64,000 nucleotides of DNA from an uncultured Gammaproteobacteria bacterium (GCA_964653685.1 CAZZHA010000001.1:5794-69793), one strand, 5' to 3'; counted from the stretch's first letter, positions 24,921-62,126 are shown. Numbers and translations are program-made. Notes: generated by a model from the sequence alone, not told the origin.

Positions 24921-24977
24921 AGCCTATATTTTAACATTTCCAGTCTCTCAATTTTACTCTTGTGATAAAATCAGGCT

Positions 24978-25379: not shown

Positions 25380-25391
25380 CGGAAAATAATT

Positions 25392-26177
25392 CTAACTACT
25401 GGCACTTGTATATTGAGTTAAAGCATAGCGCCAAAAACGAAGCGATCCCCATAAAAACAAACCATTAACTAAAAAAGCCGCCATTACCCAAGGCCAAGAA
25501 ATCAAGCCCATTAAAGCTTTAGTGGGCACTGTAAAAAGAAAAACCACGGGAATGGTAAAAGTTAAAATCCATCTAATGATTTCCCTATAAATATCGGTTG
25601 GAAAGCGAGCCATGCCGGTCATATCACGATAAATCCAAAGTAAATGGTCTATTTCCATGGTAATGATACCAACGCTGCAAGCAAAAAGATGAAAAGAAAA
25701 ACCCAAGATAAAACTATTAAACAAGAGAAGCATCGCTAAAAATAAGTGATCAAAACCAGCAAAAAGTTGTTGGGAAAAGATAAACCAAACAAAGAAAATT
25801 GAAAGAGGAATTAAAGTAATTAAATCCAAGATATCGGTATAGCCAAAGACTGGTCGGAAAAAAGAAGGTAAAGGTCTTAATAAATCTAAGTCAAAATTAC
25901 CAGAAGTGACCAAGGGTCGAAAATGATAAGCGCCTCGGAATAAAAACTGGGTAAAGATATCAACGATGTTAAAAATTAAAAAGAATAAAATTACTTGTTC
26001 GCGAGAATAACCGGCTAGAGTTTTTGTTTGAGACAAAACTACTAATAAAAAGATAATCATAAAAAGAAATCTCAAAATCTTGCCAATGATAAAGAAAAGA
26101 CCTGATAAGGAAGTCAGTAATTGTTCTTGAGCTGCGTTCTTAGCCATTAAAAACCAAATTTTAGTCAATCGTTTCAT
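25392..26177 (-). CDS. ABC-2 type transporter permease
   Basis: 6-TM ABC-2 permease-like; operon with next permease and ATPase. Confidence 0.6.
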   Translation of the reverse strand: MKRLTKIWFLMAKNAAQEQLLTSLSGLFFIIGKILRFLFMIIFLLVVLSQTKTLAGYSREQVILFFLIFNIVDIFTQFLFRGAYHFRPLVTSGNFDLDLLRPLPSFFRPVFGYTDILDLITLIPLSIFFVWFIFSQQLFAGFDHLFLAMLLLFNSFILGFSFHLFACSVGIITMEIDHLLWIYRDMTGMARFPTDIYREIIRWILTFTIPVVFLFTVPTKALMGLISWPWVMAAFLVNGLFLWGSLRFWRYALTQYTSASS

Positions 26178-26181
26178 TAAT

Positions 26182-27018
26182 TTAGCCTCCCCAGGCAGAG
26201 TAATGCCTTAAACCTTTTCGCCAAACTAACCGCGAAAGATAAAACATCATCACTAACCAAAAAATCATCACTCCTGTTACCTTGATTATTTCCATGATTG
26301 AAACCTGTTCTAGCCAAATTTTTAAAGGAAAATAGATTAAATAAGGAAAGGGAGTAGCGAGAATAAAGCGAGCTAACCAATGAGGAAGAATGTCGATCGG
26401 AAAAAAAGCACCTGACATAAATTCAACTACCACTAACATAATCAACCAGCGCGGTGCCCAATTAGATTCTGTCCAAAAAGATAAAGAACAAGCAATCAGA
26501 TTAATAAAAAAGAAAAGCAAAGCTGATAGGAAAATCAAGAGAATAAAAAAGAGGAGATTAAGCGGGTTTTGAGGAAACCAAAAAGGTGGTCTAAAAAGAT
26601 AAAGAACCAACCCAATCTCAACTAAAACAAAAGAAAGATTCAAGAGTTTGTCAGCCAAATCGCGAGTAAAGTAAAAGTTTCGGGGAGATAAGGGTTTGAC
26701 TAGAAAACTATTAATCTTACCACTATAAATATCGGCCTCAAGGTCGGTACTCCGATTAGACATTACCAATCCCCTTAAAAAGGCAATCCCAATCACATAA
26801 GTCAACATTTGGGCTTTTTGGTAGCCAAAAATTTCACCTCGCCCCTGGTAAATAGCGGCCCAAAAGAAAAAAAGAGTCAAAAAAAGAATAAAACTGCGAA
26901 ATCGCCAAAGAAGAAAGTTCAAACGGTAAACAAAATATTCTTCAAGCGTGTTTTTAATTAATTGAAGATACTTAGTCATACTTCTTACCGGTGAATAATT
27001 CTCGAATAATATCTTCAA
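26182..27018 (-). CDS. ABC-2 type transporter permease
   Basis: 6-TM permease; overlaps ATPase gene 3' end. Confidence 0.6.
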   Translation of the reverse strand: MKILFENYSPVRSMTKYLQLIKNTLEEYFVYRLNFLLWRFRSFILFLTLFFFWAAIYQGRGEIFGYQKAQMLTYVIGIAFLRGLVMSNRSTDLEADIYSGKINSFLVKPLSPRNFYFTRDLADKLLNLSFVLVEIGLVLYLFRPPFWFPQNPLNLLFFILLIFLSALLFFFINLIACSLSFWTESNWAPRWLIMLVVVEFMSGAFFPIDILPHWLARFILATPFPYLIYFPLKIWLEQVSIMEIIKVTGVMIFWLVMMFYLSRLVWRKGLRHYSAWGG

Positions 27019-27955
27019 TTGCCGGTTCTTCGATGTTTAGATCAGCCACTGGTAACTCATTCAAAGCTTTAGTCGCAAGCATTGAAACCTCGTTTCTTTT
27101 GGCCGAAAAAATTAATTCTGGATAATTAAATTCTTTGATTTTGCCAATCGTTTCTAACCTTTTAGGATCCACTTCTTTAGCCAAAATAATTGAAATTTGT
27201 TTATGGTCAGCATATTTTTTAGTAATTTCTCTGAGCTGACCGTCAAAAACAATTTTTCCATTATCAATAATAATGACTCGCTGGCAAAGTTCTTTAACAT
27301 CACTCATATAATGAGAGGTGAGGATAATGGTTGATTTGGAGCGCCGGTTGTATTCTTTAATAAAGTCACGCATCCTCTTTTGCATGACCACATCAAGACC
27401 AATCGTTGGCTCGTCAAGAAAAAGCACCTTGGGCGAATGAAGCAAAGCAGCCACTAATTCACATTTCATTCTCTGACCTAAGGAAAGTTTCCTCACTTGG
27501 ACTCTAAGGAGATCTTTAACCTCAAGTAACCGAGTCAGTTCGTCTAAGGTTTTTTTAAACTGCTTATCAGGAATTCCATAAATCTCCTTATTCAATAAAA
27601 AAGTTTCCATGGCTGGCAAATCCCACCAAAGCTGGTTTTTTTGCCCCATAACTAAAGCAATTTGTTTGAGAAATTCTGGTTTCCTCTTCCAAGGATCAAA
27701 ACCTAAAACCGAAATCTTACCTGAACTAGGATAGAGTAATCCCGAAAGACACTTTAAAGTGGTGGTTTTTCCAGCTCCATTAGGACCAATAAAACCAATT
27801 AACTCACCTTCGTTAATAGAAAAGGAAATATTATTAACCGCCTTAACCTCAACGTATTTTCTCTTAAAAAGAGATTTAACTGAACTAGTTAATCCCGGTT
27901 CTTTTTGATGAACTCGATAGAATTTTTTTAGACGAGAAACTTGAATTGCTGCCAC
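26972..27955 (-). CDS. ABC transporter ATP-binding protein (COG4586-like, C-terminal extension)
   Basis: Walker A GPNGAGKTT, signature LSLGQRMK, Walker B LFLDEPT. Confidence 0.8.
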   Translation of the reverse strand: MAAIQVSRLKKFYRVHQKEPGLTSSVKSLFKRKYVEVKAVNNISFSINEGELIGFIGPNGAGKTTTLKCLSGLLYPSSGKISVLGFDPWKRKPEFLKQIALVMGQKNQLWWDLPAMETFLLNKEIYGIPDKQFKKTLDELTRLLEVKDLLRVQVRKLSLGQRMKCELVAALLHSPKVLFLDEPTIGLDVVMQKRMRDFIKEYNRRSKSTIILTSHYMSDVKELCQRVIIIDNGKIVFDGQLREITKKYADHKQISIILAKEVDPKRLETIGKIKEFNYPELIFSAKRNEVSMLATKALNELPVADLNIEEPAIEDIIRELFTGKKYD

Positions 27956-27991
27956 TGCAGTTTAAAGTTTAACATATCTGAAGGAGAAAAA

Positions 27992-28264
27992 TTACCTGAC
28001 CGCCTTCTTTAATGGTTTGCCTGGAGAAAATCTAGGAGCCCGATGACTTTTAACCATTTTCTTTTCACCGCTTCCAGGAACAATAACTGGCTTTTCTTTA
28101 ACCTTAGCAACTCGAAAAGTACCAAAACCAGAAAGAACGACTTTATCACCTTTTTTTAAAGCATTAGCTATTTCAGTTAAAAAAGTGTCAATTGCCTCTC
28201 GAGAAGCCCTTTTAGTTAAATGGGCCTTAGCCGCTACCAAAGTCACAATTTGTTTTTTAGTCAT
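27992..28264 (-). CDS. hup: DNA-binding protein HU
   Basis: HU/IHF fold (GFGTFRV, arm region R..PRFSPGK). Confidence 0.85.
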   Translation of the reverse strand: MTKKQIVTLVAAKAHLTKRASREAIDTFLTEIANALKKGDKVVLSGFGTFRVAKVKEKPVIVPGSGEKKMVKSHRAPRFSPGKPLKKAVR

Positions 28265-28316
28265 AAATTCACCTCCTTTTTACCACTCTTAAATGGTGAG
28301 CAGGAGATTCCTTTAA

Positions 28317-28345
28317 AGGATAGCTTAAAAGGAGAAGATTGTCAA
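28317..28345 (-). promoter_or_regulatory. sigma70-type promoter for hup (TTGACA-17-TATCCT)
   Basis: Read on minus strand; followed by SD AAAAGGAGGTG before the hup ATG. Confidence 0.5.
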
Positions 28346-28379
28346 GCTAATTCGGCCTTTTCGTTTATTGATTAGCTAA

Positions 28380-29768
28380 TTATTTTGCTTTAGTCGTCTC
28401 GCTGGCGGAAGTCTCGCGGATACAAGTCACCTTAATCTGGCCAGCATAGGTGACTTTTTCTTCTAATTTTTGGGTAATTTTATTAGCCAAAACTACCAGT
28501 TCGTCATCATTAACTTCTTCTGGTTTAACCATGACCCGAACATCTCGACCGGCCTGATAAGCAAACGCCTCCTCCACTCCCTTGAATTTATTAGCAATTT
28601 CTTCAATTTCCTCCATTCGCTTCACGTACTCTTCATGAGCGGCGTATCTAGCGCCTGGTCGGGAGCCGGAAATAGCGTCAGCAACCCAAATAATCCGCGA
28701 TTCAGCTGACGAAAAAGGTTTATCTTCATGATGTTCGGCAATACAAGCAACCACTTCTTTGGGAATACCGTATTTCTTGGCTAATTCAACTCCTAACTGG
28801 ACATGGGTACCTTCTTCCTCAGTGACCACTTTGCCAATATCGTGAAGGAGACAACTCAAACGAACAATATTAACATCGGCCCCAACTTCATGAGCAATCT
28901 GAAGACCAATTTTGGTTTCTTCAAGAGTATGAGCGATCATGTTTTGACCATAAGAAAATCTGAATTTGAAACGGCCTAGAAGTTTAATTAAATCAGGATG
29001 AAGTTGATAAACATTAACCGCATGACAAAGCCTTTTACCTTCCTCGAACATAATCTTCTCAACTTCTTTTTTAGTTTGACTAACAACTTCTTTAATTCTG
29101 GCTGGCTGAATTCTTTGGTCTCTAATTAATTTTTGCAAAGCTCTTTTGGCAATTTCCCGACGAATTGAATCAAAAGAAGAAATAATAATGTCATTAGCAT
29201 CACCTAATTCAATCTCCACTCCTGTAGCCTGTTCAAAAGCCCGAATGTTTCTGCCCTCACGACCAATCACCCTACCTTTCAATTCCTCACTCGGCAGTTG
29301 AACCGAAGAAACCGTGTACTCGGCCACATAATCAGTGGCTCCATGCTGCATGGCTTCAACCAATAACTCTTTGGCTTTCTCTTCAACTGTCTCTTCAACT
29401 TCTTCTTCCGCTTCTTTAACTTTGCGAGCCATACTTTCAGCTAGACGTTTCTCCGTTGCTTCCAATAAAAGATTTTTGGCTTCCTCGCGAGTTAATTCAG
29501 CAATCTTTTCTAATTTAGCAATTACTTTTTTTCTTATCTCTTCAACTTCAGTTAATTTCTTATCCAAATCTTGTTGACGCTTATCAAGCTGGTTTTCTTT
29601 TTCCTCTAAAGCCCCTTCTCTTCTTTCAATTTCTGCAATTTTAGTTGCCAGCTCTTTAGCGATTTTTTTACTGTTCACTTTTTTTGTCGATTTTACTTCT
29701 TTCCCACCTTTTTGAGTTGCTTTTTCTTCGTCTAAAGCTTTGGTTAATAAATTATCTAATAATCCCAT
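28380..29768 (-). CDS. rny: ribonuclease Y (short N-terminus)
   Basis: Coiled-coil, KH domain (GREGRNIRAFEQATG), HD domain (LLHDIGK). Confidence 0.75.
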   Translation of the reverse strand: MGLLDNLLTKALDEEKATQKGGKEVKSTKKVNSKKIAKELATKIAEIERREGALEEKENQLDKRQQDLDKKLTEVEEIRKKVIAKLEKIAELTREEAKNLLLEATEKRLAESMARKVKEAEEEVEETVEEKAKELLVEAMQHGATDYVAEYTVSSVQLPSEELKGRVIGREGRNIRAFEQATGVEIELGDANDIIISSFDSIRREIAKRALQKLIRDQRIQPARIKEVVSQTKKEVEKIMFEEGKRLCHAVNVYQLHPDLIKLLGRFKFRFSYGQNMIAHTLEETKIGLQIAHEVGADVNIVRLSCLLHDIGKVVTEEEGTHVQLGVELAKKYGIPKEVVACIAEHHEDKPFSSAESRIIWVADAISGSRPGARYAAHEEYVKRMEEIEEIANKFKGVEEAFAYQAGRDVRVMVKPEEVNDDELVVLANKITQKLEEKVTYAGQIKVTCIRETSASETTKAK

Positions 29769-29942
29769 AAAACCTCCCTATTAATAATCTTTGGCGATTT
29801 GGCTTTTGGTAACGGAAAATGGTCGTTAGAAGATAACGGTTTATATCAAATCTAGATATAATCTACCTTTTTTAGAAGCCATGATTCGTAATACCAACTT
29901 CGCCAAAAAAACTAATAATAACTAAATTTCAACAGTTTTATT

Positions 29943-30560
29943 TTACCAATTTTCTAAGTATTTATCAATAACTGTTCTAATTACTTCCCAAGAAAAACCG
30001 CGCCGAGCCAAAAAAGCCGACATTTTTCGATAAAATTCATTTTTGGACAGATTTTTATAAGTCTTTAATTTCTTTTGGGCTAATTTTTCAGCCAAATGCA
30101 ACTCACTGACACTCTCAACCGTCTCTTTAATAACAGTCTTATCAATTCCTTTTTGACGTAATTCCATGGTCAAACCATACTTGCCTCGAGGCCGAAAGAT
30201 CGTTCTTTGGTCAACCCACCAACGGGCAAATTCCCGATCATCTATTTGTTTTAATTCTTTTAATTTAGCAATTACTTTTTCGGCTACTTTTGAAGATGAT
30301 CTCTTTTTCTTAAAATAATTGCGAATTTCTTTTTCAGATCGAGGTCGCCTGGAGATTAAACGAAAAGCCCTATCCAGTGATTTTTGAAATTCATTTTTAA
30401 AAATTAAATCATCTATTTGTTTTTGATTTAATTTCTGGCCAATTTTTAAACGAGCTTTTAAAAAATTATCAGCATCTAAACCAAAAGAGAATTTACCATC
30501 GAGATAAAGATTAACACGCTTTTTGTTTTTTTGGGCTTTGATTTTGGTTACTTGGGGCAC
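29943..30560 (-). CDS. recX: recombination regulator RecX
   Basis: RecX-like repeats; immediately downstream of recA. Confidence 0.7.
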   Translation of the reverse strand: MPQVTKIKAQKNKKRVNLYLDGKFSFGLDADNFLKARLKIGQKLNQKQIDDLIFKNEFQKSLDRAFRLISRRPRSEKEIRNYFKKKRSSSKVAEKVIAKLKELKQIDDREFARWWVDQRTIFRPRGKYGLTMELRQKGIDKTVIKETVESVSELHLAEKLAQKKLKTYKNLSKNEFYRKMSAFLARRGFSWEVIRTVIDKYLENW

Positions 30561-30572
30561 TAGATTAGGAAG

Positions 30573-31655
30573 CTACTCTTTCTTTTTTTCGCCAATTTCT
30601 CTAGACAAATCTAATTTACCAGCTTTAACTTTCCCCCAAATTTCTTTTTCAATTTTTTTCGCTATTTGAGGGTGTTCTTCTAGATAAGCCTTAGCTGCCT
30701 CTCTACCTTGACCGAGCATGATTTTGTCAAACTTAAAAAAAGCACCTGACTTCTCAATAATCTCTAGTTCAACCGCCACATCAATCAAATTACCTGACTG
30801 AGAAATACCACCAACATTCATAATATCAAATTCGGCCACCCGAAAAGGCGGCGCTACTTTGTTCTTAACTACTCTAGCTCGATGACGCGAACCAATCACA
30901 ATTTCACCATCTTTAATGGCCCCAATTTTTCGTAAATCAACTCTGACCGAAGAATAAAACTTTAAAGCTAAACCGCCAGGGGTGGTTTCCGGATTACCAA
31001 ACATCACGCCAATTTTATGACGGAGTTGATTAGTAAAGATAACAATTGTTTTTGACTTGGAAATAGCCGCGGTCAACTTTCTCAAAGCTTGAGACATTAA
31101 TCTGGCCTGAACACCAATCATCGCTTCGCCCATCTCGCCCTCAATCTCGGCCCGGGGTGTCAAAGCAGCCACAGAATCAATAGCAACAACATCAATCGCT
31201 CCAGACCGAACCAAAGTCTCGACAATTTCCAAAGCCTGTTCACCGGTGTCAGGTTGGGAAATTAACAATTCATCCAGATCAACCCCAATGGATTCGGCTC
31301 GAGCCGGATCCATGGCATGTTCCGCATCAACAAAAGCAGCTGAACCATCTCTTTTTTGGGCTTCAGCAATCACATGCAAAGCCAAAGTGGTCTTACCTGA
31401 AGCTTCAGGTCCGTAAATCTCGACCACTCGACCTCTGGGTAAACCACCCACACCAAGAGCGACGTCTAAAGCAATTGAACCAGTAGGGACAACATTAACT
31501 TTCTTGACTTCACCCTTGCTACCCATTCTCATAATCGCCCCTTTACCATATTGTTTTTCGATCTGTTCCATCGCCATTCTAACAGCTAGAGCTTTTTTAC
31601 TAGAAGTGTCTTTTTTAACAACAGGATTTTTAGGAGTTTTTTTCTTTCTTGCCAT
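30573..31655 (-). CDS. recA: recombinase RecA
   Basis: [33 protein letters not shown] and other RecA motifs. Confidence 0.95.
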
Positions 31656-49002: not shown

Positions 49003-49649
49003 TATTTCAGAAAAGTTTCTTTTAATTTTTTAATACTTTCTTCCATTAAGACAACCTGCTTTTGACTCAGAACCTGGTAAGGGTTAAGCTGATTAGCCTG
49101 AACCAATTGAACCCCAGCCAGATTCCTTGAGGCCCGAATAACATTCTCTAAAACCTCTGGCAAAACCAAAAGAATCTTCACTTCCTTTTTCTTTTTTTCC
49201 TTTAAGGGCAGCTTAGTAAGAATCGTAGCCATGGTTTTAGTTTTTGGTTCCACTTTCCCCAGTCCCTTAACCGCAATGATTTCTTCTTCCTTAAATTTAC
49301 TTGTTAGAGCGGAGAATAAGGCTTGGCGCTTCATTTTCTTGCTCATTTTCAACTTATAATTTTCCTTGCCCGTTGGGCTGTGAGCCCGGCCACCACCAAC
49401 GAAAATCGGAGCATAACGATCACTATGACGGGCCCGACCTGTACCTTTTTGACGCCAAATTTTTCTTCCGGAACCTGCCACTTCGGCCCGAGTTTTGGTT
49501 TTAGCGCCGGCTTTTCTTTGATTTGAAAGATAAACTTTAACAGCCTGAGCCATTAAAAGTTTATTAATCTTCGCCTCAAAAATCTCCTTAGGCAGACTAA
49601 TTTGACCTGCTTTTCTACCAGTAATTGTATAGAGATCAACTTTAGCCAT
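49002..49649 (-). CDS. rplD: 50S ribosomal protein L4 (start trimmed to MAKVDLY)
   Basis: L4 core. Confidence 0.9.
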   Translation of the reverse strand: MAKVDLYTITGRKAGQISLPKEIFEAKINKLLMAQAVKVYLSNQRKAGAKTKTRAEVAGSGRKIWRQKGTGRARHSDRYAPIFVGGGRAHSPTGKENYKLKMSKKMKRQALFSALTSKFKEEEIIAVKGLGKVEPKTKTMATILTKLPLKEKKKKEVKILLVLPEVLENVIRASRNLAGVQLVQANQLNPYQVLSQKQVVLMEESIKKLKETFLK

Positions 49650-50505
49650 TGTCTTTTGCCTCCTCAACTGGTTCTTCTTTTGTTTTTTTCTCTTTTTCCT
49701 CCACTGATTTTTCCTCCTGACCTGATTGTGGTTTGGCTTCAGTTTCTCCAGCAGCTACCAAAGCTTCTTTGGCTTCTTCTTCTCGCCGCAAACGTTCAGT
49801 TCGCTGCTCCTCGGTTTCTTCAATCTCCTTTTTACCTACCTCCATTAAAGGCACAAAACGCTTGGTCTTGCCCGTTTTGGTAATAATCAAAAGCCCGTTT
49901 TGGGCGCCTGGCACCAATCCTTTGATTAATAATTCTTCATTTTCCTTATCAATTGCCTGAATTGTCAATCCCTTGACGGCTATTCGAGCATTACCGGCCC
50001 TCCCGGGCATTTTCTTACCTTTATGAACTCTACCAGGAGTGGTGCCTTGACCAATTGAACCTGGTGCTCTTTCTCGATCAGATTGACCATGGGTTCGCGG
50101 TCCACCTTTAAAACCCCAACGCTTCACAACACCGGTAAAACCCTTACCCTTTGACCAACCAGTCACTTTTATCTGGTCGCCTGGCTGAAAAATATCAGCG
50201 ACTTTAAGCCGCTCACCCACTTTAATTTCATCCCCAAGAGGCTTCTCTAATCTAATTTCCCGCAAAAAACGAGGAGCCTTTTCTAATTTAGCTCCTCTTA
50301 AATGTCCTTTTAATGGTTTCTTAATCTTAGTCATCTTTTTTTCTCCCCAGCCGACCTGAACTGCATGATAGCCATCTTTTTTTTCATCTCGAATCTGAAC
50401 CACATAACAAGGTCCAGCCTTAATTCTGGTTACTGGTATCCTGGTGCCATCTTGAGTAAATCTCTGATTGACTTCTTTTTTTATGCCTAAGATTGTGTTT
50501 AACAT
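49642..50505 (-). CDS. rplC: 50S ribosomal protein L3 with roughly 75-aa acidic C-terminal tail (start trimmed to MLNTILG)
   Basis: L3 core FQPGDQIKVTGWSKGKGFTG...; Glu/Lys-rich tail. Confidence 0.9.
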   Translation of the reverse strand: MLNTILGIKKEVNQRFTQDGTRIPVTRIKAGPCYVVQIRDEKKDGYHAVQVGWGEKKMTKIKKPLKGHLRGAKLEKAPRFLREIRLEKPLGDEIKVGERLKVADIFQPGDQIKVTGWSKGKGFTGVVKRWGFKGGPRTHGQSDRERAPGSIGQGTTPGRVHKGKKMPGRAGNARIAVKGLTIQAIDKENEELLIKGLVPGAQNGLLIITKTGKTKRFVPLMEVGKKEIEETEEQRTERLRREEEAKEALVAAGETEAKPQSGQEEKSVEEKEKKTKEEPVEEAKDNG

Positions 50506-50510
50506 TTTGA

Positions 50511-50537
50511 CCACCAAAAAGAGTGCCGGAGGCACTC
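50511..50537 (-). promoter_or_regulatory. leader hairpin + U-run immediately upstream of the rplC RBS (possible attenuator/autoregulatory site)
   Basis: Minus strand GAGUGCC-UCCG-GCACUC followed by UUUUUGGUGG then ATG. Confidence 0.4.
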
Positions 50538-50605
50538 TTAGGGTTACTCCATTAACTAAATTAGTTTACTTTCAATAGGTGTTTAACCTCACCTCCATTA
50601 GCAAA

Positions 50606-50634
50606 TATTATAGAAAAATTCAGGATAAAAAGCA
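50606..50634 (-). promoter_or_regulatory. sigma70-type promoter for rplC-led operon (TTGCTT-17-TATAAT)
   Basis: Perfect -10 and 17-nt spacer read on minus strand, roughly 100 nt upstream of rplC start. Confidence 0.6.
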
Positions 50635-50668
50635 AGCTGATTTTATTGTGAGTAAAATTAGAGCTAAT

Positions 50669-50962
50669 TTAATCAATTCCCCAGAATTTCTTCTCGCCCT
50701 CTTCATCTGGACCAATGAATTTCAGTTGTAAAAAATCCTTTAAGTCACTAATAAAATGGCCAATGCCAAAAGAAAAAGATAATTGTCCTAAAAGATGCTG
50801 ATAAAAAAATAAACCAAGCAGCATTAACATCACCCCATAAATCCAATGATGAGGAGCCCAAGTGGGATTATTAAGTTTCATATTAAGATAATAATGGCTC
50901 CATCTTCCAAGTAGATATCCTATTAAAGCAGCAATGACGAAAAAGAGGATTTTCCAGATCAT
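50669..50962 (-). CDS. hypothetical small membrane protein
   Basis: 3 predicted TM segments; no family recognised. Confidence 0.4.
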   Translation of the reverse strand: MIWKILFFVIAALIGYLLGRWSHYYLNMKLNNPTWAPHHWIYGVMLMLLGLFFYQHLLGQLSFSFGIGHFISDLKDFLQLKFIGPDEEGEKKFWGID

Positions 50963-50990
50963 TTTCTTAATTCTACCAAACCAAACGATA

Positions 50991-51017
50991 TTGACCTTTT
51001 AATTTTTCTGCTATAAT
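50991..51017 (+). promoter_or_regulatory. promoter for 51030 gene (TTGACC-15-TGCTATAAT), 12-nt leader
   Basis: Hexamers by eye; no SD before ATG. Confidence 0.4.
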
Positions 51018-51029
51018 TATTTACATTAT

Positions 51030-51590
51030 ATGCTGGTTAAAAAAATTATTCTCATTATCCTTGCTTTAGGAGCAGTTGGTACCTTAAGTTTTTTTCTTCT
51101 TAATAAAAATAGTTTGCCAGAGGTTACTCAGCAGGTTGGGATGGAAAAAGAAAATCTCGATGACCAATGGTTAACCTATACCAATGATTCTTATCAATAC
51201 GAAATTAAGTATCACCGTGACTGGCACAAGCAGGAAGAAAATGAACCACCCTACCCTCCGCCACCTGCGGGAATGAACTTCAGCCGGCGTTGGCTTGAAC
51301 CACTAGAGGTTTGTGATTTTCAGATTTCATCAAGCGATATCGTTGATAATTTTGAAGGGGAAATTGAGAGTCTCTCCCAAGACACTAATAAGCAAATGTC
51401 TCAAGCAGTAATCGCTGGCCAAAAGGCAACCAAGTTCGTTAGTTCAACCGAAAACCAATTAGTTGAGAGCTATTACCTAACTTATAAAAGAAATTCATTT
51501 AATTTGGGATTTAATATTCTCCGAGGGGAACACTTTAATACCTGTCAACAGGTCTTTAACCAAATGATTGCTTCTTTTAAGCTTTTATAG
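51030..51590 (+). CDS. hypothetical membrane-anchored secreted protein
   Basis: N-terminal TM; PPYPPPP stretch; no family recognised. Confidence 0.4.
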   Translation: MLVKKIILIILALGAVGTLSFFLLNKNSLPEVTQQVGMEKENLDDQWLTYTNDSYQYEIKYHRDWHKQEENEPPYPPPPAGMNFSRRWLEPLEVCDFQISSSDIVDNFEGEIESLSQDTNKQMSQAVIAGQKATKFVSSTENQLVESYYLTYKRNSFNLGFNILRGEHFNTCQQVFNQMIASFKLL

Positions 51591-52272
51591 CTTTTATTAA
51601 TAATCTTGTTGGCATTGAAGAATATTTCTTATAGTCTTTTTTATTCTTTTTAGCCTTTTTACCCACAGGGGTGGGTTCTTCAACACTTAACAGTTCAAAA
51701 CCAAAACTCATAATCGTGTTTATATAGTCAGAAAACTTTTTCGGGTGATATTTAATTTCTGTTCCCCAAGGTGTTTTCTCTATCTTTGCTTTATTACTAA
51801 AGTATTCTGAATGATTACTAACAAACCGAAGTGGATGAATAGTAATAAAAAATAGATATCCTCCTTTTGCTAACCATCTAGAAATACTCTCCATTGTTTT
51901 CTTAAAATCCTTTTGACTTAAATAATTAAAAGTCATATTACTTACGACAAGGTCTAAGCTTTCATTCCGTAGTTTTAAATTAGACAAGTTTGCCTGTATA
52001 AACCTTATATTGGGAAAAGAATTTCGGGCGATATTTAGCATATCAGGACTTATGTCAGTTCCGATAAGATTTTTTTCCCTCACTCCCAAATCAAGAAGTA
52101 GTTTTATTGTTCTTCCAGTTCCACACCCAGCATCAAGAACTCGCATCTTACTTTCCAATATTGGTTTTAAATGCCTTTCCATTGCTGGTTTTTCTACAAA
52201 TTTCCAACTAAATGATTTCTCTGAAAACTGAATATATTTAGCAGCTTGCACACCTGAGTATTTTACTTTCAT
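51577..52272 (-). CDS. class I SAM-dependent methyltransferase
   Basis: Motif I VLDAGCGTGRT; motif post-I DISPDML. Confidence 0.8.
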   Translation of the reverse strand: MKVKYSGVQAAKYIQFSEKSFSWKFVEKPAMERHLKPILESKMRVLDAGCGTGRTIKLLLDLGVREKNLIGTDISPDMLNIARNSFPNIRFIQANLSNLKLRNESLDLVVSNMTFNYLSQKDFKKTMESISRWLAKGGYLFFITIHPLRFVSNHSEYFSNKAKIEKTPWGTEIKYHPKKFSDYINTIMSFGFELLSVEEPTPVGKKAKKNKKDYKKYSSMPTRLLIKAIKA

Positions 52273-52339
52273 GGGGAGTCAATTATATCACTAGCTATGT
52301 AAATACAAAAACCCAGTAAATCGGGCTTTTCTATCCCTG

Positions 52340-52367
52340 ACTCCCTATCGTGGACGAAGTTAGAACT
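52340..52367. repeat. conserved 28-bp upstream motif, copy 1 (ACTCCCTATCGTGGACGAAGTTAGAACT)
   Basis: 22/28 identical to copy at 54027-54054; lies 50 nt from TGATATAAT -10 of the methyltransferase gene. Confidence 0.7.
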
Positions 52368-52377
52368 GGTTTGAGCT

Positions 52378-52800
52378 TTAAATGCTAAGAATATAAATAC
52401 TTAATATTGCTAAAACAAGCCCTGTTATTTTTATTAATGTCAGTCTTTCGCCAAAAAATAGCAGACCAATGATCGCCGAAAAAATAATTGTAGAAATTGA
52501 CAAAAGAGGTAATCCAAGGCTAATAGGAGCCTTCTTTTGATACATCAAAAAATAAAGAAGGCTGCCAAAAGCACTAAAAATTCCTGCTAAACAAGCCAGT
52601 TTTACTCCTTTTGAGGTAATGGTTATTTCTTGACCAGTTGTTTTGAAAATAAAAATTAACCCCAAAGTAATTATTGCTGAGGCGACTGAGAGAGAAATTG
52701 ACCCAACAAGAGCATGTAGATGATTGCTGCTCAATTTAAGAAAAGCGTTGTAGATGGCAAAGAAAAAACCAGCGGCTATGCCAAAAATTACCCAATTCAT
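52378..52800 (-). CDS. EamA/SMR-like 4-TM small membrane protein (DMT superfamily half-unit)
   Basis: 140 aa, four TM helices, EamA-like spacing. Confidence 0.5.
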   Translation of the reverse strand: MNWVIFGIAAGFFFAIYNAFLKLSSNHLHALVGSISLSVASAIITLGLIFIFKTTGQEITITSKGVKLACLAGIFSAFGSLLYFLMYQKKAPISLGLPLLSISTIIFSAIIGLLFFGERLTLIKITGLVLAILSIYILSI

Positions 52801-52810
52801 GTTTTCATTA

Positions 52811-52845
52811 TACCAAACAAAAAAAGCCCATTAGCTTGGGCTTTC
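52811..52845 (-). terminator. intrinsic terminator (AAAGCCCA-AGCUAA-UGGGCUUU + U7)
   Basis: Perfect 8-bp stem then UUUUUUUGUUUGG on minus strand; immediately followed by TGGTATAAT and the EamA-like ATG. Confidence 0.7.
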
Positions 52846-52934
52846 TGAAATTAGTTCGGCCAATAAAGCCATTTACAAACTCCAAATGTAAATTGGTCCA
52901 ACCAAAAACCTTTTGCTGGGAAACCAATTTTAAA

Positions 52935-53426
52935 TCACGATCCGGCTATTTTTGTCAATTTGATAACCGTAACGACTCCATTCTTTTCATTTCCCTGAAC
53001 CCTGGCCATAGAACCAAGCTCTAATTTGCTTTTATCACAAACTTCTTCCCCACTACCCAAATCACATTTACTTGAGGCATTAAAGGCGAGATTAGCTGTG
53101 TTAGCTGGCCGACCGGGTGATTCGTAAAGCAAAACCCAATTACCAGTTTGCCTTTCGGCATTAGCATCCCAATCAGTTAAATTGCCTGTCTTATCAAAAT
53201 TCTCGACCAAAACCGGCTGGCTATCTGATTCGTCAAGGTCTTGTTCAGCCTCTTCTATTGGAGCACTTGTCTCTTCGGAACTACTACCAGTGGGTAATTG
53301 AATTCCTGGCAAATTTATTGGTTTCTTGATTATTTTTGCCCCACCATAAACGACTATGGCTCCTACCACCAAAAGAATAATCAAAATTAACAAAGCCGCT
53401 CCTTGTTCGTTTTTTGATTTTCTCAT
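52935..53426 (-). CDS. hypothetical secreted protein
   Basis: N-terminal TM/signal; SD AGGGGGTGAGG; acidic linker. Confidence 0.45.
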   Translation of the reverse strand: MRKSKNEQGAALLILIILLVVGAIVVYGGAKIIKKPINLPGIQLPTGSSSEETSAPIEEAEQDLDESDSQPVLVENFDKTGNLTDWDANAERQTGNWVLLYESPGRPANTANLAFNASSKCDLGSGEEVCDKSKLELGSMARVQGNEKNGVVTVIKLTKIAGS

Positions 53427-53469
53427 CTTTCCTCACCCCCTTTCTTTTTCCTTTAAAAGGTTCCTAATT

Positions 53470-53494
53470 CTCTCCTGTGGATAAAGTTAGAACT
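53470..53494. repeat. upstream motif, degenerate copy 2 (CTCTCCTGTGGATAAAGTTAGAACT)
   Basis: 3' half GTGGA..AAGTTAGAACT matches copy 1 at 16/18. Confidence 0.5.
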
Positions 53495-53961
53495 TACTCA
53501 CTAATTTTCTTTTCTAGACAAATATCTATCTCTAAGTACCCATTACTACGATAAAAATCCAAGGCTTCTCTATTTTCCACATAGCAATTAAGATATATTT
53601 TCTGGAAACCTTCTCGCTTTGCCCAATCTGTTATGGTGTCTAATATTTTTTTACCGATTCCTTGTTTCTTTTTTTCAGGTATTACTCCTAGATTATCAAT
53701 TTCAAAATACCTACTTTTACGATATGATACTTCTTTTTCTTCGCCATTCGCGTATCCAATCATCTGTCCATCCTCTTCAGCGATCAAAAAACACCCCTTT
53801 CTACTTCTAATTGCTTCTTTGAAATATTTCTCTCCCTGAGGGGTATAGGCAAAGTCCTCAACAGCATCTTCGTCATATTCAGAATTATTCATGAAGATTT
53901 GCTTATTCAATTTTTTTACGGCTGGTAAATCGCGGATCGTTGCTTTCCGGATAGTTATCAC
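53494..53961 (-). CDS. GNAT family N-acetyltransferase (GTG start)
   Basis: Acetyl-CoA motif A: VIPEKKKQGIGKKIL; GNAT beta strands. Confidence 0.8.
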   Translation of the reverse strand: MITIRKATIRDLPAVKKLNKQIFMNNSEYDEDAVEDFAYTPQGEKYFKEAIRSRKGCFLIAEEDGQMIGYANGEEKEVSYRKSRYFEIDNLGVIPEKKKQGIGKKILDTITDWAKREGFQKIYLNCYVENREALDFYRSNGYLEIDICLEKKISE

Positions 53962-54026
53962 AATTGAATTATATCAAAAGTGGTTCAACAATTTTTATCT
54001 GAAGTAGAACATCTATCTTCAAACTT

Positions 54027-54054
54027 ACTCCCTATCGTGGGCGATGTTCAGACT
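54027..54054. repeat. conserved 28-bp upstream motif, copy 3 (ACTCCCTATCGTGGGCGATGTTCAGACT)
   Basis: 51 nt from TGATATAAT -10 of the GNAT gene. Confidence 0.7.
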
Positions 54055-54252
54055 AGTTGGGAACAAATTTAAGCAAGAAAAATCTAATAAATGAAACCAA
54101 AGATACTTGTTCGCAGAATCACTCGGGAAGAGAGTGATTAGAGCTGGATAAATGACCGGACAAAAATTTATCATATGTTGATATAGTTATAAATAGTCTC
54201 CGCAGGAAGTCTCACTTCAGGTTTAGGAGTTTGATAGTAAGTGGTTTGTTAT

Positions 54253-55827
54253 TTATTTAAATATTTCTCTAAGAAAGCTAAGGATTTTTTGCCAAAAGGT
54301 TAGTTTTGTTTCAGACAAAGGAGTAATTATTGGTTCTGGATTTGAAGTAATTTGTGGTGTGGGACTTGGTTGTTGTTCTATTTTTTCTTTAATCAGTTCT
54401 GTTGTCTGACCCAAGACTTCATTTTCCGAGGTTGTCTTTTTAGCTACAGCCAATTTTTCAGTTTTGGCAGAAATGTAATTAGACCACCTTCCCGGAGCGC
54501 AGCCGTTGCCGGCTCTGATTGTAAAATAATAGGTAGTGCTTGGGGCAAGAGCTTTTATAGTGTAGTTGACTACTCCAATCTTTTGAGCGGAATTAAATTG
54601 GGTGCCAAAACGCCAGTCGCCTTCCTTATAACCATAGGCAATAAAATAATAGGAAACATAATCGGTAACCGGCATAAAATATAAAGTGGCGGAATTTTCA
54701 GTGGTATCAATTTGAAATAATTTTGGCGCAGTTAAAGGCGGCCAATCTCCACAACCAAGGGCAGAAGTAGAACTTGTAGAAGTAGAACCGGTATCTTCTG
54801 CTACCGTAAAAGTAGTGAAATGGGCAGCCGTAAAAGTAACTAAATGAGTCGTTCGGTTATAACTTAATCCGGACACAATGCCACCAGTATCAGTTTGTCC
54901 ATCAACTAATATTTTTGGGCTGTTTAGGGTAATACTATACATCGTTAAAGAAGCTTGGGTATCGGTTAAATCTTTAATGAGGTCAGCGTCAAGGCTGATT
55001 ACTCCCTGGGAAATGCTTAATTTGCTGTCTAATGATTGCATCCAGGTCAAAGCATCGCGATCAGTGAAATTCATCTCCGCCAAAAAAGTTATTTTGCCAA
55101 TGTTTTCTCCACCTTCACTTTTCAGGAAATATAATCCGGAGATACGGGAAAAGTCGCCTTGATCGCCTAAGTTTGTGGCTACACCTTCATTGGTCATTTG
55201 TGTAGTAATAGTACTGATTGTTGGACATTCACCAGAACCTGGGTTGCACCATCCGCGAGTAGGAGAAGCGGCCGAATTCCAGGTTTGTTCATCTAAGTTG
55301 TAATAGGCAGATTTGCCTTGTTCTATGGTAACGCCAGTGGCGTCACTCGGATCAGCACCAGGATCACAAGTTTCGCTACCGTACTTTACGGCATAAACAC
55401 TATTGCTCTCATCTCTGAAAATTACCAAACAGGCGCCATCATCAGGGATACGAGTGTCATTATCGGTCGCGAAAGTCAAAAAACCGCCGCGGGGGACGCT
55501 CCCACTTAAATCTTGTGAATAGAAATAAGTGTAGTTTGGTTCTGTACCCTGATAAATTACCAATCTCCACCCGGAAAGACTAAGAGCTGTGTCCTGATCA
55601 GGATTTAGCAGCTCAATCCATTCTTCGCCGCCAGCACTAGGCTGCGCTACAAACTCGTCAATCATTACCACAGGATCACCATTTGCCCTTACCGGAGAAA
55701 TTCTTACGACAACGGCAAAAAAAGAGAAACAAAGAAGAAGCAGAAAAACAAAAACTAGTTTTTTCATCACTAAAAACATTTTTACCTTTTTTGATAAAAA
55801 TGTCAACATCTTATCCATCCACCACAT
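54253..55827 (-). CDS. secreted lamin-tail-domain (LTD) + fibronectin type III surface protein (likely true start M21, about 55767)
   Basis: LTD signature EFVAQPSAGGEEWIELLNP...LSLSGWRL; C-terminal FN3-like region. Confidence 0.55.
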   Translation of the reverse strand: MWWMDKMLTFLSKKVKMFLVMKKLVFVFLLLLCFSFFAVVVRISPVRANGDPVVMIDEFVAQPSAGGEEWIELLNPDQDTALSLSGWRLVIYQGTEPNYTYFYSQDLSGSVPRGGFLTFATDNDTRIPDDGACLVIFRDESNSVYAVKYGSETCDPGADPSDATGVTIEQGKSAYYNLDEQTWNSAASPTRGWCNPGSGECPTISTITTQMTNEGVATNLGDQGDFSRISGLYFLKSEGGENIGKITFLAEMNFTDRDALTWMQSLDSKLSISQGVISLDADLIKDLTDTQASLTMYSITLNSPKILVDGQTDTGGIVSGLSYNRTTHLVTFTAAHFTTFTVAEDTGSTSTSSTSALGCGDWPPLTAPKLFQIDTTENSATLYFMPVTDYVSYYFIAYGYKEGDWRFGTQFNSAQKIGVVNYTIKALAPSTTYYFTIRAGNGCAPGRWSNYISAKTEKLAVAKKTTSENEVLGQTTELIKEKIEQQPSPTPQITSNPEPIITPLSETKLTFWQKILSFLREIFK

Positions 55828-56105
55828 ATTGGAATTATTAGGGTAATCAGTTTACCAAAGTCATAAAGGAACCCAGAACCACTGTCTGTCTGGGTCGCTT
55901 TGATCTGAAAGGGAGTGATTTTAATAAGCTTGTCTAAGAAATCAGCCAACGTTCTTGAAAAATGACTCTTGTAGATGTAGGAGAAAGTAAATTCAGAAAT
56001 GATATCAATGTCAGTAAGAATATACCTCTTGATTCCATGTTCGAATCTAACATTTGAAGTTGCGAAGAATATTTAAATTTGCTTAACTTATATTAGAGTT
56101 AGAAA

Positions 56106-57272
56106 ATGATGAAAATAATTACAGATAAATTAACCGCCCTGAAGAAAATAAAGCTATCCAAACTCCATTTAATACTCATAGCTTTGGGCTTATTGGTTTT
56201 ACTAGGTACAATCTCTGCTATTTATTTACAGAAAAGGCAACAAGGTTTCTTAAGAGAGGGGTCTGGACAACCACAGGGTTGGGGACAAAGACCGGGAGGA
56301 GCTCAGGATCTCGGCGAACCGCCATCGACCTCTCTCAAACCGCGTTGGAGTGGTTCTATTCCCAAACCCCCCAAAGAAAAGATTACCTACTACAAAGGCA
56401 TTTGGGGTGCGACATGGATTTATCCGGAAGAACATTCCAATCTTAAACCTGAACCTGAAAAATACCGCGGTTGGGGAGTGAATATTATTAATATCTCCCC
56501 AGGTTTTGAAATTAACAAAAACGGCGAGGTGCGCTACCCTTTGGACTTCCCTACTTATGAAGATATGGATGCCAGGATTGGCGAAATTGCCGAAATGTTT
56601 TACAAAGAAGATATTTATTTGGCCATGACGATTCAGGTTCATTATAAAGAAGAGTTTGTCCGCGGGGCCGAATGGGGCGGAGAAACGGCTTATATACCCA
56701 AGGAAAAGACACAAATTCCTGGATATTTCAAAAATTTTGACAATATTGTTGTTGATATGGCCAAAATCGCCCAAAAATATCACTTGGAATTGTTTTCGCC
56801 GTTAGGTGAACCGGAGAATGTATTTTACGATCCTAAATTAGCTTCCGATTGGAGTCAACAGGTTCTGCCCAAGGTTAAGAAATACTACAAAGGTAAAGTT
56901 TATTACAAGGGTGATTTACACAAAGGAGAGGGGGACAATATGAACTTCAGAGGCTATGATGTTTTAGGAATTATGCCTCACCCGGCTGAGTTAGCGTATA
57001 ATTTTAAGGCTCTCCGAGAAAAAGTGGTTATCAATATGGACAAAGGTCTGGCTTGGGCCAAAAGAGATGGAGTAAATGAGGTAGTCGTAGCCGAACATGG
57101 ATATGAAGGAGGGGGCAAGATGTGGCCTGCAGAAAACTTCGATATCCTCTTGGAAGAAAGCAGTAAAAGATTAAACGGGATTTTTTTAAGCGATCCATTT
57201 CCAACAGTTCTAAAAACAAAACAAGGTGAGCAAATTATCTCTGTGATGAAAAGGTGGTTTTCCTCCAAGTAA
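56106..57272 (+). CDS. hypothetical membrane-anchored secreted protein, possibly glycoside-hydrolase-like
   Basis: N-terminal TM; large extracytoplasmic domain; weak GEP/EHG motifs only. Confidence 0.35.
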   Translation: MMKIITDKLTALKKIKLSKLHLILIALGLLVLLGTISAIYLQKRQQGFLREGSGQPQGWGQRPGGAQDLGEPPSTSLKPRWSGSIPKPPKEKITYYKGIWGATWIYPEEHSNLKPEPEKYRGWGVNIINISPGFEINKNGEVRYPLDFPTYEDMDARIGEIAEMFYKEDIYLAMTIQVHYKEEFVRGAEWGGETAYIPKEKTQIPGYFKNFDNIVVDMAKIAQKYHLELFSPLGEPENVFYDPKLASDWSQQVLPKVKKYYKGKVYYKGDLHKGEGDNMNFRGYDVLGIMPHPAELAYNFKALREKVVINMDKGLAWAKRDGVNEVVVAEHGYEGGGKMWPAENFDILLEESSKRLNGIFLSDPFPTVLKTKQGEQIISVMKRWFSSK

Positions 57273-57312
57273 CCAGTCTGCTCCGCGGGCAAGACTCGAA
57301 CTAACATTAAAC

Positions 57313-57621
57313 TTACATCTTGATTTCAATATCAACGCCTGCGGGCATTTCGAGGTGCATTAAGGAGTCAATTGTTTTACTAGTTGGTTCAAGAATATCA
57401 ATTAATCTTTTATGAGTAAGAATTTGGAATTGTTCTCTGGCGTCTTTGTCAGTGTGGGGACTGGTGGTAACCGTAATCAGTTTTCGGTGGGTTGGTAAAG
57501 GCACAGGACCCACTACCTTGGCACCACTAGCTAAGGCTGTTTCTAAGATTTTTTCGCAACTTTCATCGATGACTCGATGATCATACGCTTTTAAACGTAC
57601 CCTTATTCTGCCTTTTGGCAT
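57313..57621 (-). CDS. rpsJ: 30S ribosomal protein S10
   Basis: [15 protein letters not shown] motif. Confidence 0.9.
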
Positions 57622-61132: not shown

Positions 61133-61489
61133 CTAATAACCTCGTTCCTTCCCTGAACTCCTTGTTTTCTCAAACAACTCTTGTTGAATCTCATCATCTT
61201 CTGTTTCGAAATGATGGTCGCTTGCAAAATCTCTTACTTCCATCATTCCAAACATGCCTGAACCATCAAAAACAACAAAAGTGCCATGTTGAGGTAATCT
61301 ACAATTACCTACGACCCTATTAGTTTGGTGGTGTTCAATGCAAAGCTCGGTTAAATCACCTTCAGCTCTGATAACCAGTCTATCCTTCATCCAAGCAACC
61401 ATCTCACTCCTTCTAAGGGAAAATGAACCTTCTATTTCGTCCCAACAATCCCGACAGATTGCCTTTGCTGTGGGTTTTCTAATCGACAT
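61133..61489 (-). CDS. hypothetical Cys-containing protein (118 aa)
   Basis: CRDCW...C...C; acidic tail; no family recognised. Confidence 0.35.
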   Translation of the reverse strand: MSIRKPTAKAICRDCWDEIEGSFSLRRSEMVAWMKDRLVIRAEGDLTELCIEHHQTNRVVGNCRLPQHGTFVVFDGSGMFGMMEVRDFASDHHFETEDDEIQQELFEKTRSSGKERGY

Positions 61490-61550
61490 AAACTAAAAAA
61501 TTGCTTTTGGGCAGGTAATAAAATAAAAATAATAGAATCCTGACTTCTAT

Positions 61551-62126
61551 TCAAAAACCTCTTTGTCGGTAAAGCTTAGGATCAATCACCTTTACCATAG
61601 CTTGAGTATCAAGAGTTTCATCTAAAAATTGGTTAATCTTTTTTACTTGACTCGCTGGCTTTTTCAAAACTTGATTATAGTTAATATAGATGACTTCAAT
61701 ATTGGGTTGCTTGCCCAACCATAATTTAACCTCTTTTAAATGCTTTTTGAATAAGGTAGCCATCTTTTTATCACTGGCTTTATTCACTGGTTTGCCTCTT
61801 CTTTTAAGCATTTGTCTTTGGGAAGCAAGAATCTCTTCCATCTTCCGTTGCATAAAAATTACTTTGTAATTGTAGTCTTTGGGTAAATATTTTAAGAATT
61901 CAGACACCATCTTAACGGTCTTACCTTGAACCTGTTTAAGCCAAGTTTTATCCCGCCTAATCTGTTTAACTTTTTCAAATTCATAATAACCTTTAGGGTT
62001 ATCCTCATCGGCCTTTCTCAGATTATCTGTCAAAACAGACATCCCACCGGCTTTCATCATCTTCATCATCATTGAGGTACCAGAACGAGGTAAACCAGAA
62101 ACAATCGTAACCGTTTTTTGTTTCAT
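61551..62126 (-). CDS. sulfotransferase-family protein
   Basis: 5'-PSB loop IVSGLPRSGTSMM resembles PRSGTT of PAPS-dependent sulfotransferases; roughly 190 aa. Confidence 0.45.
   Translation of the reverse strand: MKQKTVTIVSGLPRSGTSMMMKMMKAGGMSVLTDNLRKADEDNPKGYYEFEKVKQIRRDKTWLKQVQGKTVKMVSEFLKYLPKDYNYKVIFMQRKMEEILASQRQMLKRRGKPVNKASDKKMATLFKKHLKEVKLWLGKQPNIEVIYINYNQVLKKPASQVKKINQFLDETLDTQAMVKVIDPKLYRQRGF

Follow-up and report, generated by a model that had tools for sequence, protein, structure and literature searches.

Genes between rpsJ and rplC

The 64,000-nucleotide stretch of DNA analysed here (the window) belongs to a bacterium of the Patescibacteria with a low guanine-plus-cytosine (GC) content of 38%, a member of the Microgenomates in the candidate phyla for which exact protein look-ups give the name Microgenomates group bacterium RBG_19FT_COMBO_39_10 (GCA_001803445.1), and our subject is a block of 6,807 bp that stands between two of its ribosomal protein genes, rpsJ and rplC. 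A listing of open reading frames (ORFs) combined with Pfam searches gives the minus-strand order rpoC-rpsL-rpsG-[sulfotransferase and 118-residue ORF]-fusA-tuf-rpsJ, followed by the block and then by rplC-rplD-rplW-rplB and further genes. The S10 gene rpsJ (57313–57621, minus strand; Pfam Ribosomal_S10, E 4e-33) is the last gene of the rpoC-rpsL-rpsG-fusA-tuf-rpsJ unit, with 6 nucleotides (nt) between the tuf stop and its own start, and the L3 gene rplC (49642–50505, minus strand, ATG at 50505; Pfam Ribosomal_L3) heads the cluster that begins rplC-rplD-rplW-rplB. The canonical S10 operon, in which rpsJ leads and rplC comes directly after it, is not the state found in the window. An earlier note, made from the sequence alone, had described a 6.8-kb island of eight small genes splitting rpsJ from rplC; the ORF listing and Pfam bear this out, and the eight ORFs are of the kinds that it had named. 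We refer to the block as the islet.

The islet gene next to rpsJ (56106–57272, plus strand) encodes a 388-residue protein with an N-terminal transmembrane helix and converges on rpsJ across a 40-nt spacer. Its score against Pfam GH113 is 21.4, under the cut-off of 27; the top 15 Foldseek matches of its AlphaFold model (pLDDT 85) are all GH113 beta-mannanases (E 2e-12, TM 0.5–0.65), and residues E235 and E330 are invariant in 35 homologues. The protein is therefore predicted, largely from its modelled fold, to be a membrane-anchored glycoside hydrolase (GH) of clan GH-A, similar to GH113. Its orthologues in other Microgenomates (GH388; 65–81% identity) lie at ordinary non-ribosomal loci, beside WD40 and PsbP-like genes, and because they occupy such chromosomal positions elsewhere, the gene appears to have moved to the rpsJ-rplC site.

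Four minus-strand genes follow in a run. The first encodes a secreted surface protein with LTD and fn3 domains (54253–55827; Pfam LTD 3e-9, fn3 2e-6), whose true start is probably a few tens of nt further downstream than 55827; in L002 the gene is called 16 codons shorter (508 residues), and this stretch has a GC skew of the opposite sign to that of the other minus-strand genes. Next come a GNAT N-acetyltransferase (53494–53961; Pfam Acetyltransf_1 2e-19, all NCBIfam matches under cut-off), a hypothetical protein of 163 residues that is membrane-anchored or secreted (52935–53426) and is followed by a strong intrinsic terminator at 52821–52846, and a single-EamA membrane protein of 140 residues with four transmembrane helices, similar to ArnF and SMR proteins (52378–52800; Pfam EamA 3e-9, weak ArnF match). 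Closer to rplC are a class I S-adenosylmethionine methyltransferase recognized by Pfam (51577–52272, minus strand), a 186-residue ORF with a transmembrane anchor and a weak Pfam match to PsbP_2 (51030–51590, plus strand) and, from the ORF listing and Pfam, a 97-residue membrane protein (50669–50962, minus strand). No islet protein exceeds any curated NCBIfam cut-off.

Taken together, the GH113-like hydrolase, the LTD/FN3 protein, the EamA/ArnF-like protein, the GNAT enzyme, the methyltransferase and the three small proteins, membrane-bound or secreted, point most plausibly to a cargo that alters or decorates the cell envelope. A defence island was considered and rejected: PADLOC returned only a generic methyltransferase-domain match (mad2) and a marginal match to the GNAT gene. 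The EamA, methyltransferase, GNAT and 97-residue genes each have a hexamer of the –10 type 6–9 nt upstream of the start codon (6 nt ahead of the ATG for EamA), suggesting that several cargo genes may be expressed as independent, largely leaderless units. These TATAAT-like hexamers, without a Shine-Dalgarno sequence, are found on the minus strand at 50960–50985, 52272–52300, 52800–52815 and 53961–53985, and as a pattern they suggest that leaderless mRNAs may be widespread in this organism.

The same arrangement recurs in other assemblies of the species. An S10 protein identical to that of the window is encoded on seven contigs, which come from different samples and assemblers (ENA, NCBI and Logan); all seven span the rpsJ-side junction, two of them (L001 and L002) also reach rplC, and they are co-linear with the window at 99.7–99.9% identity on both sides. 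Nucleotide differences among these conspecific contigs amount to 0.07–0.24% in the islet and 0–0.36% in the flanks. The islet is fixed within the species and evolves like its flanks.

Occupancy of the junction in relatives and traces of mobility

Relatives were gathered through L3 homologues and their contigs and through two S10-based collection scans. Two loci, which overlap over 5,280 nt with 0 mismatches, together give the region in the sister species, species B; identity to the window is 94% in the str operon and 91.6% in the rplC-side cluster. The junction of species B is broken at the same two points, with 10.5 kb and about 15 genes between rpsJ and rplC, including HAD-like, 2'-5' RNA ligase, peptidase M10, Amidase_3, alpha/beta hydrolase and DEAD helicase genes. 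Homology between the two species ends at 57279, returns for the methyltransferase (52276–51583) and returns again at 50649. The methyltransferase (80% amino-acid and 85% nucleotide identity) is the sole islet gene that they have in common and in species B lies directly ahead of the rplC promoter, whereas the other seven islet genes are missing from the site there. Its presence in both species makes the methyltransferase probably the oldest layer of the islet, predating the split of the sister species. On its rplC side, a species-specific segment of 0.93 kb (50650–51582) with the 186- and 97-residue ORFs has no counterpart between the methyltransferase and the rplC promoter of species B; on its rpsJ side lie the GH gene, a transposase relic described below and the run from the LTD gene through the GNAT and 163-residue genes to the EamA gene.

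Other relatives hold different DNA at this point, or none. In L093 (S10 96% identical) at least 5.7 kb follows, with HD, cupin, glyoxalase, HhH-GPD, ASCH and other genes, and ends in a large serine recombinase (Recombinase plus Zn_ribbon_recom). L089 (L3 74%, S10 97%) has a single gene of 140 codons between rpsJ and rplC, and L090, L091 and L092 (L3 75%, S10 97–98%) have an uninterrupted spacer of about 110–130 nt, the intact spacers of several relatives measuring 110–140 bp. Among 160 loci of the two collection scans, no homologue of an islet protein was found within 10 kb of rpsJ. Since close relatives lack the same gene set at the site, the block is accessory across species. The variable content that the earlier note had proposed is thus borne out between species, as species B, L093, L089 and L090–L092 all differ at one site, and the comparison of synteny that it had called for finds the junction intact in some relatives and filled otherwise in others, so the gene set is not ancestral core.

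More broadly, insertions recur at this junction in Patescibacteria. Among 68 Microgenomates-like loci (S10 identity at least 69%) the median spacer is about 150 bp and 19 have insertions of more than 350 bp; among 75 loci of lower identity (60–69%; mostly Chloroflexota-type, with Saccharimonadia and CPR2 included) the median is 48 bp, 41 of the 75 have 60 bp or less, and 10 have insertions of more than 350 bp, nearly all of these being Saccharimonadia or CPR2 loci. Within this comparison set the premise that rpsJ normally abuts rplC therefore stands. The surprise implied by speaking of one of the most conserved syntenic positions does not extend to Microgenomates, where a spacer of about 150 bp is typical, a promoter-like motif and leader occupy it in the clade that has the leader, and 19 of the 68 loci have insertions. 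The rpsJ-rplC site is probably permissive in this clade: as rpsJ seems to be transcribed with tuf, and rplC as its own unit, DNA inserted after the rpsJ stop and ahead of the –35 element of rplC would break nothing.

Saccharimonadia usually have 3–9 kb at rpsJ-rplC, including an MgsA/RarA-like ATPase and a small membrane protein. The membrane protein, of about 85 residues, is present in seven loci (L036, L043, L046, L070, L039, L042 and L079), and an ATPase of about 400 residues stands beside it in four (L036, L043, L046 and L070), confirmed as MgsA/RarA-like in L036. The split looks old in Saccharimonadia because the same small protein recurs in seven loci, four of them with the ATPase. In Amesbacteria-like loci, 30 nt of the rpsJ 3' end form a direct repeat that encloses a 1-kb rpsJ-rplC insertion, with 29 of 30 positions identical (L014, 3296–3325 and 4314–4343; L117, 283–312 and 1301–1330). 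The duplicate has the look of an integration signature, namely the target duplication typical of insertion into the 3' end of a gene.

The rpsG-fusA junction of the window is interrupted as well, by a sulfotransferase gene (191 residues) and the 118-residue ORF (61133–62126, minus strand). Species B has this insert in common with the window (at least 90% amino-acid identity); L089 has only a 116-residue ORF there, 49% identical, and L090 has three other genes instead, a fusion of GT2 and polysaccharide deacetylase and two hypotheticals.

The earlier note had seen no integrase or transposase in the islet, a statement that has to be revised in view of two remnants. The first is a 23-nt fragment, GTTCGAGTCTTGCCCGCGGAGCA, at 57279–57301 on the minus strand, in the 40-nt spacer between rpsJ and the GH gene and at the rpsJ-side border of the islet. 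In pattern it matches the T-loop, T-stem and acceptor 3' strand of tRNA-Asn(GTT) genes; no full tRNA gene is present at the border. The fragment also follows rpsJ in species B and L093, and in all three the resemblance breaks off immediately behind ...GCGGAGC. The fragment is missing where the junction of a relative is empty, and therefore appears to have arrived with inserted DNA. Site-specific integration usually leaves such a scar, a displaced tRNA 3' end at the border of an island, and we read the fragment as a putative remnant of an attachment (att) site. A degenerate pattern of the fragment also occurs in 13 viral contigs, in 5 of them exactly at a tRNA-Asn(GTT) 3' end and in the others as lone fragments.

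The second remnant is a relic of a DDE transposase (55830–56066, minus strand; about 75 codons, Pfam rve E 0.002) in the spacer between the divergent GH and LTD genes. A phmmer search of 1.8 billion representatives gave 145 matches, the best at E 2e-21 and 63–64% identity, and the relic aligns to residues of about 190–260 in proteins of about 350 residues that carry HTH_32, rve and rve_3. This helix-turn-helix (HTH)+rve+rve_3 architecture of about 350 residues is typical of the IS481 family, to which the relic may belong. Only a piece of the catalytic core is left, with no HTH part, no rve_3 part and no inverted repeats identified, so it is not an intact insertion sequence. A specific link to the intact transposase in L197, which lies 4 kb from an orthologue of the GH gene, was rejected, as the two are only 35% identical.

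Traces of a different recombinase occur at the site in relatives. The island of L093 has, in addition to its serine recombinase gene, a 47-codon C-terminal relic of such a gene, and species B has a 42-codon relic. The L093 relic ends ...GGGGAGC, next to a repeated 'terminator plus promoter' module of about 150 nt that is also present in species B; the recombinase gene or relics and these modules lie at 1401–1590, 4976–5268 and 5832–7076 in L093 and at 663–834 and 1585–1731 in L088. The left arms that meet the modules at ...GG(A/G)GC differ, an arrangement that suggests repeated site-specific recombination. Neither the serine-recombinase relic nor the module of L093 and species B was found in the window.

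In composition, the tetranucleotide distance of the islet from the rest of the window is 0.0168, and the maximum among 88 equal-sized segments is 0.0141. The k-mer and GC-skew comparison proposed in the earlier note thus gave a divided answer: the tetranucleotide signature lies beyond all 88 controls and the skew is locally reversed, but GC content is equal. Elsewhere in the window, 24001–30800 is the second most atypical tetranucleotide segment, with an AT skew of +0.28–0.34 at 25–27 kb.

The rplC promoter and leader

Homology with species B resumes at 50649, just upstream of a putative rplC promoter, TTGCTT-17 nt-TATAAT (50607–50635, minus strand). The motif TTGC[AT]T-17/18-TA[TC]AAT can be read in 11 of 12 distinct relatives with the leader, counted by eye and including some with intact junctions. 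The leader itself spans about 87 nt (50514–50600, minus strand). It begins 8 nt after TATAAT with the invariant AUGGAGGUGA, which opens a mini-ORF (50572–50598) encoding MEVRLNTY and a stop codon; a hairpin, P1, lies at 50578–50593, and a terminator-like hairpin, AAGAGUGCC-UCC-GGCACUCUU with a U-rich tract (50516–50539), stops 10 nt short of the rplC AUG. Where the junction is intact in relatives (L090, L092, L008, L010/L103, L108, L098 and others), the whole rpsJ-rplC spacer is taken up by the promoter-like motif and leader.

A covariance model of the leader (R1), built from 12 sequences, was searched against about 2.1 Mb. At E ≤ 0.007 it matched once per locus in 25 loci and in the window, eight of these matches being outside the seed, and every match lay in the rpsJ-rplC interval and on the coding strand. 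A mini-ORF of 6–8 codons from an invariant AUG is present in all 12 seed sequences (MEVRLNTY, MEVRLDTY, MEVRFNTY, MGVRLTPN, MEVRNF, MEVIFLN, MEVISPD, MEVKLRT, MELKFVY and MEVKLF) and in eight of nine matches outside the seed (MEVKLFLS at four loci, MEVRLF at two, MERNIF, and MEENIRHI, the last in a weak match at E 0.047). The terminator hairpin has 9 bp, is rich in G+C, is followed by U5–7, lies 6–47 nt before rplC and shows two compensatory pairs. By a strict hairpin-plus-T criterion it is found in 22 of 57 distinct Microgenomates-like rplC upstream regions as against 3 of 71 in the lower-identity group. The consensus fold gives the terminator hairpin only; the middle hairpins vary by subgroup and did not align.

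Within the leader, GGAGGUGA is, judged by the 16S rRNA 3' end, a perfect mimic of a Shine-Dalgarno sequence, and it is complementary to the GCCUCC of the terminator arm and loop. A candidate antiterminator would accordingly form by pairing of a 5' GGAGGUG with GCCUCC, a pairing for which no covariation was shown; some members have an upstream UGGCAC instead. In a permissive Rfam scan of 40000–64000, neither the leader nor the border fragment nor the D1 repeat discussed below had a match at E ≤ 1, and literature searches turned up no account of a split S10 operon, or of a leader before rplC, in Patescibacteria. The rplC leader looks like a candidate new ribosomal-protein leader or attenuator, and any mechanism by which it might sense ribosomes, L3 or L4 is speculation.

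The products of two nearby genes have unusual tails. The L3 protein of the window (287 residues in all) has an acidic, Glu/Lys-rich C-terminal extension of about 80 residues (49642–49880, minus strand), homologues in the clade being 260–300 residues long, and S12 (164 residues) likewise has a basic/acidic C-terminal tail.

Origin of the islet and comparison with known systems

We consider it likely that the 6.8 kb is a species-specific islet assembled by successive insertions into the short stretch from the rpsJ stop codon to the rplC promoter, and that it is fixed and no longer mobile. In such a history, rpsJ would be expressed as the tail of the tuf transcript and rplC would start a regulated unit of its own, and DNA could be inserted between the two without uncoupling the synthesis of ribosomal proteins. 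Integrative elements with tRNA-Asn-like att arms, together with at least one insertion sequence, would have delivered the cargo, and later deletions would have removed the recombination genes. The methyltransferase layer would have come first, before the sister species separated; the 0.93-kb segment near rplC and the part with the GH, LTD, GNAT and EamA genes could have arrived, or been exchanged, later.

Several observations weigh against this history. Neither an intact recombinase nor an attL/attR pair was found in the window islet, and no second copy of the tRNA fragment, or any other direct repeat at the borders, was found in the island of the window or in that of species B; the mechanism of integration is therefore inferred from remnants and relatives. 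The tRNA-Asn gene of the organism is in no fetched locus, so the border fragment is unmatched to it. The rplC promoter and terminator are consensus-level predictions: a simple promoter/terminator scan gave no more sites than in shuffles and called neither, the rplC –35 matching at only three of six positions. No presence/absence variation of the islet was seen among the seven sampled conspecific assemblies, so that 'accessory' applies between species and not to sampled strains. Finally, the islet does not differ in GC content (0.376) from the rest of the window (0.384), and the nearest homologues of the GH gene are all from Patescibacteria; any transfer would therefore have drawn on the gene pool of the lineage itself, and some of the islet may have been relocated from elsewhere in the genome.

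The earlier note had also called the locus cassette-type, and a repeat, D1, bears on that description. Minus-strand copies stand 3' of the LTD gene (54028–54053), 3' of the GNAT gene (53468–53493, degenerate) and 3' of the EamA gene (52341–52366, just outside the block common to species B), with the pattern (A/T)AGTTCTAACTTCGTCCACGA(TA)GGGAG over about 26–35 nt. In an integron-like or other cassette array, each gene with its 3' D1 would be a cassette, put in place by a site-specific recombinase whose gene lies elsewhere in the genome. The position of D1 after three genes on one strand agrees with this, as do the short promoters that several genes bear and the only other D1 in 2.4 Mb of fetched sequence, which lies at the same junction in L089 (9873–9898), 3' of the single inserted gene and abutting the rplC –35. 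However, the ORFs of the window region include no integron integrase (IntI) or any tyrosine recombinase, the D1 regions have no significant or attC-like fold (z –1.2 to +0.6 against shuffles), two genes are on the opposite strand, D1 accompanies only three of the eight genes, and it is absent from the species B island. The repeat behind three genes is thus what remains of the cassette description, set against the missing integrase and fold; a cassette mechanism is possible but unsupported, and we regard such an array as an unlikely origin of the islet. In viral contigs D1 has seven matches, no more than a rough estimate of chance would give, and none is near a tRNA gene.

If instead the eight genes had been at this site in the ancestor of the clade and had been lost or replaced in the sampled relatives, one would understand why the methyltransferase has the same place in species B, why all seven conspecific assemblies hold the full gene set and why its GC content is native-like. 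Seven of the eight genes nevertheless lack a counterpart in species B, between flanks that are 92–94% identical, across Microgenomates the junction is commonly uninterrupted and has this promoter and leader, GH-gene orthologues lie elsewhere in related genomes, and relics of mobility are present. Given species B, an ancestral arrangement is largely refuted, and we hold it to be quite improbable. That the islet is a still-mobile integrative element able to excise, whether an integrative and conjugative element (ICE), an integrative and mobilizable element (IME) or a prophage remnant, is suggested by the att-like tRNA-Asn fragment at one border and by the serine recombinase at the same site in a related lineage. 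It is very improbable, as there is no recombinase, excisionase or second att copy, none of the seven assemblies has an empty-site variant, and the nucleotide diversity of the islet equals that of the flanks. A chimera of assembly or binning at 50.5 or 57.3 kb, for which only the oddity of the location speaks, has a negligible probability. Breaks at the two junctions were checked by comparing assemblies, and because seven independent contigs agree, crossing one or both junctions with 99.7–99.9% identity on either side, and the sister species has the same split, chimerism is excluded.

Successive insertion into a tolerant spacer, the history that we favour, can be extended to a broader proposal, which we offer tentatively and think more doubtful than probable. 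The S10 operon of Microgenomates would have been re-cut, with rpsJ on the tuf transcript and the rplC cluster on its own promoter, controlled by an undescribed leader that senses free ribosomes or 30S subunits (or L3/L4) and attenuates transcription; the promoter-bearing spacer would be a phylum-wide landing pad for elements with tRNA-Asn-like att sites. The mini-ORF (ME[VRE][KRI]..) may then be essentially leaderless and overlap the Shine-Dalgarno mimic, with which the GCCUCC of the terminator may pair. A re-cut operon, if real, would explain why a highly conserved junction is broken repeatedly in the candidate phyla radiation.

There are several wider implications. Ribosomal-protein gene order is widely held to be near-invariant, and in candidate phyla the rpsJ-rplC junction, together with rpsG-fusA, is a site of recurrent gain and turnover; this bears on how chimerism is judged in contigs with these marker genes. 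The islet points to where small-genome episymbionts keep fast-evolving surface genes. A conserved, unannotated rplC leader could offer a starting point for studying how ribosomal proteins are regulated in a phylum without cultivated genetics, and the candidate att sites and the serine recombinase might serve as integration tools for these organisms.

As a kind of locus, the islet is a decayed genomic islet at an integration hot spot, which is familiar; the rplC leader is more novel. Genomic islands at tRNA gene 3' ends are known, reportedly, from the Asn-tDNA hot spots of Klebsiella pneumoniae. With islands at the 3' ends of tRNA or housekeeping genes, the islet shares presence/absence and turnover of content at one site, a tRNA-Asn 3' fragment at one border, a recombinase in a related occupant (L093), an oligonucleotide signature that is atypical although GC content is equal, and decay to an immobile state. 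Unlike them, it has no tRNA gene, the fragment alone following a ribosomal protein gene, and neither an integrase nor a flanking repeat; it is small (6.8 kb) and layered, with cargo from the lineage's own gene pool. The transposase relic resembles HTH+rve+rve_3 transposases of about 350 residues in being up to 64% identical to their catalytic-core region, but keeps only about 75 of some 350 codons.

Streptococcal and other Firmicutes ICEs and IMEs integrate at the 3' ends of the ribosomal protein genes rplL, rpsI and rpmG. A ribosomal-protein 3' end is likewise the target here, and the rpsJ 3'-end duplicate of the Amesbacteria-like loci is of the sort that such elements produce. Those elements, by contrast, are large and self-transmissible with intact integrases, whereas the window retains remnants only and the target falls within genes that form one operon elsewhere.

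The S10 operon of E. coli has an L4-controlled leader and attenuator upstream of rpsJ, and the window is comparable in having a terminator-like hairpin a few nucleotides ahead of the first gene of the cluster, with a promoter of its own before it. The E. coli type of leader is said, in work by Fu et al. from 2013, to have a narrow distribution. The leader in the window differs from it in preceding rplC, with rpsJ placed in the tuf unit, in starting with the Shine-Dalgarno-like AUGGAGGUGA and a mini-ORF of 6–8 codons, and in bearing no similarity to it in sequence or in Rfam.

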